Assembly: GCF_002854065.1 (NCBI RefSeq)
Contig: NZ_CP024147.1
DNA from: Escherichia coli
GTDB lineage: Bacteria; Pseudomonadota; Gammaproteobacteria; Enterobacterales; Enterobacteriaceae
DNA length: 64,000 bases
Reading direction: 5' to 3' (one strand)
Position 1 is the first letter of the stretch. Each line of letters begins with the position of its first letter. The position numbers and the translations under genes are program-made. The notes beneath the pieces were generated by a model. That model saw only the letters and a program-made list of their open reading frames with translations, did no database searches and had not been told where the DNA came from. Positions 45,894-45,931 of the stretch are shown piece after piece.

Positions 45894-45931
45894 ACTGTAT
45901 AAAAATCCTATACTGTACGTATCGACAGTTT
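45894..45931 (+). promoter_or_regulatory. LexA (SOS) box region upstream of ydjM: one canonical box TACTGTACGTATCGACAGTT and an adjacent partial box CACTGTATAAAAATCCTATA
   Basis: CTGT-N8-ACAG motif read directly; ydjM is a known SOS gene. Confidence 0.6.

Follow-up and report, generated by a model that had tools for sequence, protein, structure and literature searches.

The gene ydjM, in the 64,000-nucleotide stretch of the Escherichia coli chromosome analysed here as a whole (the window), is very probably controlled by a two-site LexA (SOS) operator located in front of its start codon. ydjM is a known member of the LexA regulon for which LexA binding and induction are on record in the literature, and we infer for it a promoter position and a cooperative mode of LexA binding. 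In undamaged cells LexA would sit on both sites and block transcription, and upon DNA damage the RecA-stimulated self-cleavage of LexA would free the promoter and lead to a moderate induction of ydjM. All parts of this double operator are already known and were described in 2000; only the term "cooperative" goes beyond the verified content. The ydjM SOS operator has reportedly also been attributed to Courcelle et al. 2001. With ydjM in E. coli LexA regulon textbooks since 2000 and its boxes in databases, the finding has little discovery value. Its value is one of calibration, in that the reader who wrote an earlier note on this DNA picked out a real operator from the sequence alone.

Direct reading of positions 45893-45930 gives CACTGTATAAAAATCCTATACTGTACGTATCGACAGTT, which holds both LexA boxes (Table 1). 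As LexA consensus we used the 16/20-bp palindrome TACTG(TA)5CAGTA, in which the CTG and CAG arms lie 10 bp apart. Box 2 matches this SOS box with both of its arms: its core reads CTGT-ACGTATCG-ACAG, each arm being canonical, and it is the sole exact CTGT-N8-ACAG in the window. Box 1 matches it by half; its core, CTGT-ATAAAAAT-CCTA, has a canonical left arm, whereas the right one is degenerate and has kept nothing of CAG but the C. The 20-mers of the two boxes overlap by the dinucleotide TA and are spaced 18 bp from centre to centre, and with two LexA sites within about 25 bp of each other at a conserved spacing, ydjM counts as a tandem operator. One canonical and one half-degenerate LexA box before ydjM is what the earlier note had described at 45894-45931; direct reading, scores and conservation bear this out, and the coordinates were right to within one base.

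Table 1. Positions of the ydjM operator, of predicted promoter elements and of the gene in the window
Feature	Position	Strand	Remarks
LexA box 2, strong, promoter-proximal	45911-45930		20-mer TACTGTACGTATCGACAGTT; core CTGTACGTATCGACAG at 45913-45928
LexA box 1, weak, distal	45893-45912		20-mer CACTGTATAAAAATCCTATA; core CTGTATAAAAATCCTA at 45895-45910
Predicted -10 TATACT, bridging both boxes	45909-45914	+	Part of TTCCGT-17-TATACT
Predicted weak -35 TTCCGT	45886-45891	+	TT and the following C/G conserved; 2/6 match to TTGACA
Near-palindrome GTTAC-ACC-GTCAC	45870-45882		Candidate second-regulator site, possibly part of the ydjM control region
ydjM coding sequence (gene under control), 196 aa	45945-46535	+	RefSeq annotation in 5,423 E. 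coli genomes and K-12 b1728

To score the boxes we used a symmetrised 20-bp weight matrix derived from 25 published E. coli LexA sites, from which ydjM and cho were excluded; the training sites of lexA, recN and ColE1 were verified in the actual sequence. The scan covered all 64,000 positions of the window. Rank 1 fell to the cho box with 19.2 bits, an independent positive control because it is absent from the training set. Box 2 ranked second with 16.35 bits (per-position P 1.3e-6, 0.08 sites expected per 64 kb), and in a leave-one-out comparison it falls inside the range of the proven E. coli SOS boxes, outscoring seven of the 25 known sites. Box 1 ranked fourth with 10.65 bits (per-position P 2.2e-5). 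The bare CTGT-N8-ACAG pattern proves nothing alone, since 0.63 occurrences are expected per window; at least one was present in 45 of 100 shuffles. For a given site, the probability that another one scoring 10.65 bits or more lies 10-30 bp away is about 9e-4, and in 100 Markov-1 simulated windows sites of 16 bits or better never had a neighbour of 10.5 bits or better at that distance. The weight-matrix check proposed in the earlier note has thereby been run, and the two sites do not both fall below the known boxes.

Two other matches from the same scan are worth recording. The cho (ydjQ) LexA box, CACTGGATAGATAACCAGCA, is located at 59014-59033, 13 nt 5' of the cho GTG start at 59047; cho is a known SOS gene. 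Rank 3, with 11.6 bits, is held by a LexA-like 20-mer (GGCTGAAAGATTATTCAGCA, 60662-60681) that spans the stop codon of spy (minus-strand open reading frame 60672-61157). This one is probably a chance match, since about one match that strong is expected per 64 kb.

Published data on ydjM concern both the binding of LexA and the response of the gene. Tandem LexA sites at E. coli ydjM were reported experimentally by Fernandez de Henestrosa et al. 2000, according to PMC4951493; a LexA site with the sequence CACTGTATAAAAATCCTATA has been placed at -52 of b1728 (PMC4576408, Table 2 therein), and a list of the SOS genes of E. coli includes ydjM (PMC6590174). For the E. coli gene a heterology index (HI; the lower, the nearer to consensus) of 9.0, which is that of box 2, has been given together with a 2.5-fold induction by azidothymidine (AZT) and a lexA dependence of 8.6-fold (PMC11228462, Table 1 therein), and the response to ciprofloxacin amounts to log2 values of 1.5-2.6 across 10-120 min (PMC11002266, Table 1 therein). 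In Salmonella, ydjM has two boxes that lie 14 and 32 nt away from the ATG and have HI values of 9.12 and 12.85 (PMC8072944, Table 1 therein), and these distances are the same as those in this window; the gene is induced 2.11-fold, and no fluorescence could be detected from a gfp fusion (PMC8072944). Induction is thus modest with AZT, with ciprofloxacin and in Salmonella, and the "tight" repression that the earlier note had suggested finds no support in these figures.

Conservation of the operator

One genome per species was scanned, which yielded 80 orthologous loci, all from Enterobacteriaceae and all with at least 85% protein identity; Erwinia amylovora, a Pantoea (L084) and four more distant relatives were added by exact-protein look-up. 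All 80 Enterobacteriaceae have box 2, and so do Erwinia, Pantoea and a metagenomic orthologue of 62% identity (L086), with scores of 11.7-21.6 bits; 81 of 84 orthologous promoters have box 1 as well, always exactly 18 bp 5' of box 2. Among the 80 Enterobacteriaceae orthologues the CTG and CAG of box 2 are invariant (entropy 0.00 bits), and the left half of box 1 has an entropy of 0.27 bits, with about 0.1 bits for its CTGT. Entropies within the boxes are thus 0.00-0.28 bits as compared to 1.17 bits at the third codon positions of ydjM and 1.29 bits in the far-upstream spacer. Variation is free in the three bases directly before box 1 and in the four bases directly after box 2. No LexA box was found in the ydjM-orthologue promoters of three AT-rich relatives with 46-54% identity (L087-L089), a result to which we attach little weight.

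Within the species, the stretch 45861-45947 is identical in 3,583 E. coli genomes, and most of the others are one base off. Strain 536 (L093) has a T to C exchange at 45906 inside box 1, which is a common T/C polymorphism, and E. coli lineages had previously been noted to differ by substitutions in the LexA site of ydjM (PMC3444427). A single one of 5,422 E. coli genomes, NIPH17_0036 (L092), carries a 7-bp deletion (AAATCCT; 45903-45909), which takes out the right part of box 1 and changes the spacing of the putative -10.

The predicted promoter and competing readings

The ydjM promoter is most likely the predicted pair TTCCGT-17-TATACT, with transcription starting near 45921 (45920-45922). 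It is the best sigma-70-type candidate in E. coli, with 6.5 bits in a permissive hexamer model, and the sole candidate that is conserved in all of the 82 distinct orthologous sequences, over which its score averages 6.56 bits with a minimum of 3.83 bits. CCTATACT, at 45907-45914, is invariant in 80 of the 80 Enterobacteriaceae orthologues (entropy 0.00). The pair of boxes, which ends 14 nt before the annotated ATG at 45945, overlaps this only conserved, if weak, candidate. Given a start near 45921, the promoter spacer would be filled by box 1 (about -26 to -11) and the stretch from about -8 to +8 by box 2, and two LexA dimers would thus blanket the core promoter as well as the transcription start. 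The right half of box 1 (CCTATA) would be constrained by its overlap with the -10 hexamer and not by LexA contacts; this overlap would account for a right arm that is invariant yet never reads CAG. Promoter spacers are normally free of sequence constraint. The conservation of CTGTATAAAA inside the would-be spacer is therefore the strongest indication from sequence that a protein binds at box 1. Being weak, box 1 would probably rely on the adjacent strong box 2 for its occupancy, and from this geometry cooperative binding of LexA at ydjM is plausible. The Cappable-seq supplement holds no entry for a mapped ydjM transcription start.

Several observations weigh against a two-site operator of this kind. 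Box 1 alone is not significant, as 1.4 sites that good are expected per 64 kb, and with 10.7-11.0 bits in the leave-one-out comparison it outscores one of the 25 known sites, polB; lying just under dinG (11.2 bits) and recN box 3 (12.4 bits), it is at the lower edge of the proven range. Its left arm has been lost in Citrobacter amalonaticus S646 (L013) and in Intestinirhabdus alba (L025), both of which have kept box 2; moreover, a Leclercia (L062) and the Pantoea have this arm displaced by one base, and L086 is without it. The offset of 18 bp sets the two dimers about 100 degrees apart round the helix, unlike the 21-bp offset of lexA, and cooperativity is for this reason not guaranteed. The promoter assignment is weak too: the pair reaches 6.5 bits with a -35 that matches in 2/6 positions, a stricter consensus scan of the region returned no sigma-70 promoter at threshold, and a paper based on systematic evolution of ligands by exponential enrichment (SELEX) puts the promoter elsewhere, upstream, at CTGAAA-17-ATTAAT (PMC3946193). 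Since box 1 has been lost or shifted in lineages that retain box 2, it is dispensable. To judge from this distribution, the ancestral core is made up of box 2 and TATACT, with box 1 as a conserved yet dispensable addition common to Enterobacteriaceae and Erwinia.

Could box 2 then be the only working LexA operator? Box 1 would in this case be kept as a promoter spacer or extended element or as the site of another factor, with negligible LexA occupancy in vivo. We consider this unlikely, even though a score at the bottom of the known-site range, with 1.4 chance matches per 64 kb, would be in keeping with it, the invariant TATACT fully accounts for the right half of box 1, and four orthologues (L013, L025, L084 and L086) have lost or shifted box 1 yet keep box 2 and TATACT. 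What it does not readily explain is why the CTGT of box 1 and the A/T-rich spacer keep to an exact 18-bp offset in 81 of 84 promoters, with an entropy of about 0.1 bits for the CTGT, in a region where constraint is not normally seen. Moreover, tandem LexA binding at ydjM has been experimentally reported, as stated in PMC4951493, and recN shows the same strong-plus-weak geometry.

The two-site operator at TATACT would act by occlusion of an overlapping promoter. Alternatively, the boxes might lie downstream of a promoter at about 45822-45850 (CTGAAA-17-ATTAAT in K-12) and serve as a roadblock. Genomic SELEX with the RpoD holoenzyme assigned that hexamer pair to the yniC-ydjM spacer (PMC3946193), and the poor -35 of the TATACT promoter would speak for such an arrangement as well. 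However, the SELEX-chip assignment was picked computationally and at low resolution, the first hexamer reads CTGAAT here, the pair scores only 0.8 bits, and the upstream stretch is unconserved between genera (entropy 1.29 bits, zero invariant columns), whereas all orthologues have kept the TATACT candidate; a roadblock thus seems quite improbable to us. That the box pair is a chance match without regulatory role can practically be dismissed, for although a bare CTGT-N8-ACAG is to be expected 0.63 times per window, the matrix significance, the adjacency of the two boxes and the published lexA-dependent induction (PMC11228462) argue against it, and the invariance over about 80 species already refutes it.

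The upstream palindrome and the ydjM locus

Upstream of the operator the block 45861-45890 has an entropy of 0.24 bits, which is nearly operator-level conservation when compared with about 1.2 bits at neutral-like sites. In 83 of 84 orthologous regions, even in those that have lost or displaced box 1, TATACTG is preceded at a distance of exactly 33 nt by GTTACA, which opens the near-palindrome listed in Table 1; the palindrome is perfect (GTTAC-N3-GTAAC) in L086 and in six Enterobacteriaceae. A scan of 45700-46050 against Rfam returned no RNA family, and the conserved block is therefore not a known RNA. The consensus sequences of CRP, CpxR, RcsB and Pho boxes were compared with the block by eye, and none of them fits. 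As a second promoter, GTTACA-17-CACTGT was considered and rejected: it scores 1.3 bits in E. coli, and L086 is without a -10-like hexamer at that position. We preferred to read the motif as an upstream element that belongs to the TATACT promoter.

There are hints of a second input into ydjM. The invariant CCTATACT is a -10 of a type that sigma-S prefers, and its C ahead of TATACT resembles the -13 C of sigma-S-type -10 elements. The poor -35, this -10 context and a palindrome centred about 45 bp before the predicted start together hint that a second dimeric regulator or an alternative sigma factor might gate ydjM, with the double LexA operator acting as an extra lock only. We put this idea forward tentatively; a literature search found no link between ydjM and RpoS. 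If true, a second input would explain the weak induction of ydjM in every transcriptome.

That the window represents E. coli chromosome follows from the 1.1 kb round the ydjM operator, which finds a match of 95-100% identity in 5,423 of the 5,426 complete genomes of this species; the genes annotated there are hxpB (yniC), ydjM and tcyP (ydjN). The K-12 MG1655 counterpart of ydjM is b1728 (1810211-1810801), and the 130 bp 5' of ydjM equal the K-12 MG1655 sequence bar one base far upstream. The source strain is not K-12 and diverges from it by about 0.9% near the operator, the operator itself being unchanged. An alternative start, GTG at 45933, is not kept in other genera, where GTTTTATCATG is kept. 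Directly past the hxpB stop, at 45784-45815, lies a strong terminator-like hairpin with a 13-pair stem that includes eight GC pairs, followed by a T-rich tail. This predicted structure indicates that transcription of ydjM would start at a promoter of its own and not reach the gene by read-through from hxpB. Further downstream, the interval between ydjM and cho (46535-59047) is about 202 bp shorter in the window than in K-12 MG1655 (offsets 1764266 versus 1764468), which places an insertion or deletion somewhere between the two genes.

The YdjM protein matches the Pfam family PF04307 (YdjM) with an E-value of 7e-36 and the NCBIfam equivalog NF008651, "metal-dependent hydrolase". In a confident structure model it is a helical membrane protein, and His and Asp residues are invariant. 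A sequence search against PDB returned zero matches, and no solved structural relative was found. The description of YdjM as a membrane protein of unknown function, taken from the earlier note, is fair. YdjM-like stretches occur 105 times in a predicted protein of 7,287 residues from the representative library (P0121), which probably is either an oddity of assembly or gene calling or a giant protein made up of repeats.

Comparison with known LexA operators

The ydjM operator of K-12 MG1655 consists of the same two 20-mers, TACTGTACGTATCGACAGTT and CACTGTATAAAAATCCTATA, with no difference from those in the window. LexA control of this protein family extends to a distant phylum: Staphylococcus aureus SAOUHSC_02424 encodes a YdjM-domain membrane protein that is under LexA control (PMC11442139). 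Unlike ydjM, the S. aureus gene has a single Firmicute-type box, CGAAAATATGTTCG, and is part of a three-gene operon, as known from the same paper.

Like ydjM, the lexA operator has two LexA boxes near the start codon and represents the classical tandem case (PMC4951493). It differs from ydjM in that both of its boxes are strong (20.7 and 19.6 bits) and that they lie 21 bp apart, that is, two helical turns. The double SOS box of ColE1 cea, the 35-mer of which was verified in NC_001371.1, resembles ydjM in combining a strong and a weak site that overlap at their ends (22.0 and 14.2 bits). In contrast to ydjM, however, it has a 15-bp offset with a 5-base overlap of the 20-mers, is plasmid-borne and shows very tight, delayed induction. 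For colicin genes, cooperative binding of LexA has been described (Gillor 2008, as cited in PMC4951493).

E. coli K-12 recN likewise shares the ydjM layout. Its boxes 2 and 3 are a strong and a weak site (17.8 and 12.4 bits) with the same TA overlap and the same 18-bp offset, and here too the degenerate half-site adjoins the strong box. The order is reversed, the weak box lying downstream of the strong one in recN and upstream of it in ydjM, and a third recN box, which is very strong and has no counterpart in ydjM, follows another 22 bp upstream; in Salmonella the recN boxes lie 8, 26 and 48 nt from the ATG (PMC8072944). In all three sequence-checked operators, that is, in ydjM, in recN boxes 2/3 and in ColE1 cea, the degenerate half-site of the weak box abuts the strong box. 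Such an arrangement would be expected if protein-protein contact made up for the lost DNA contacts.
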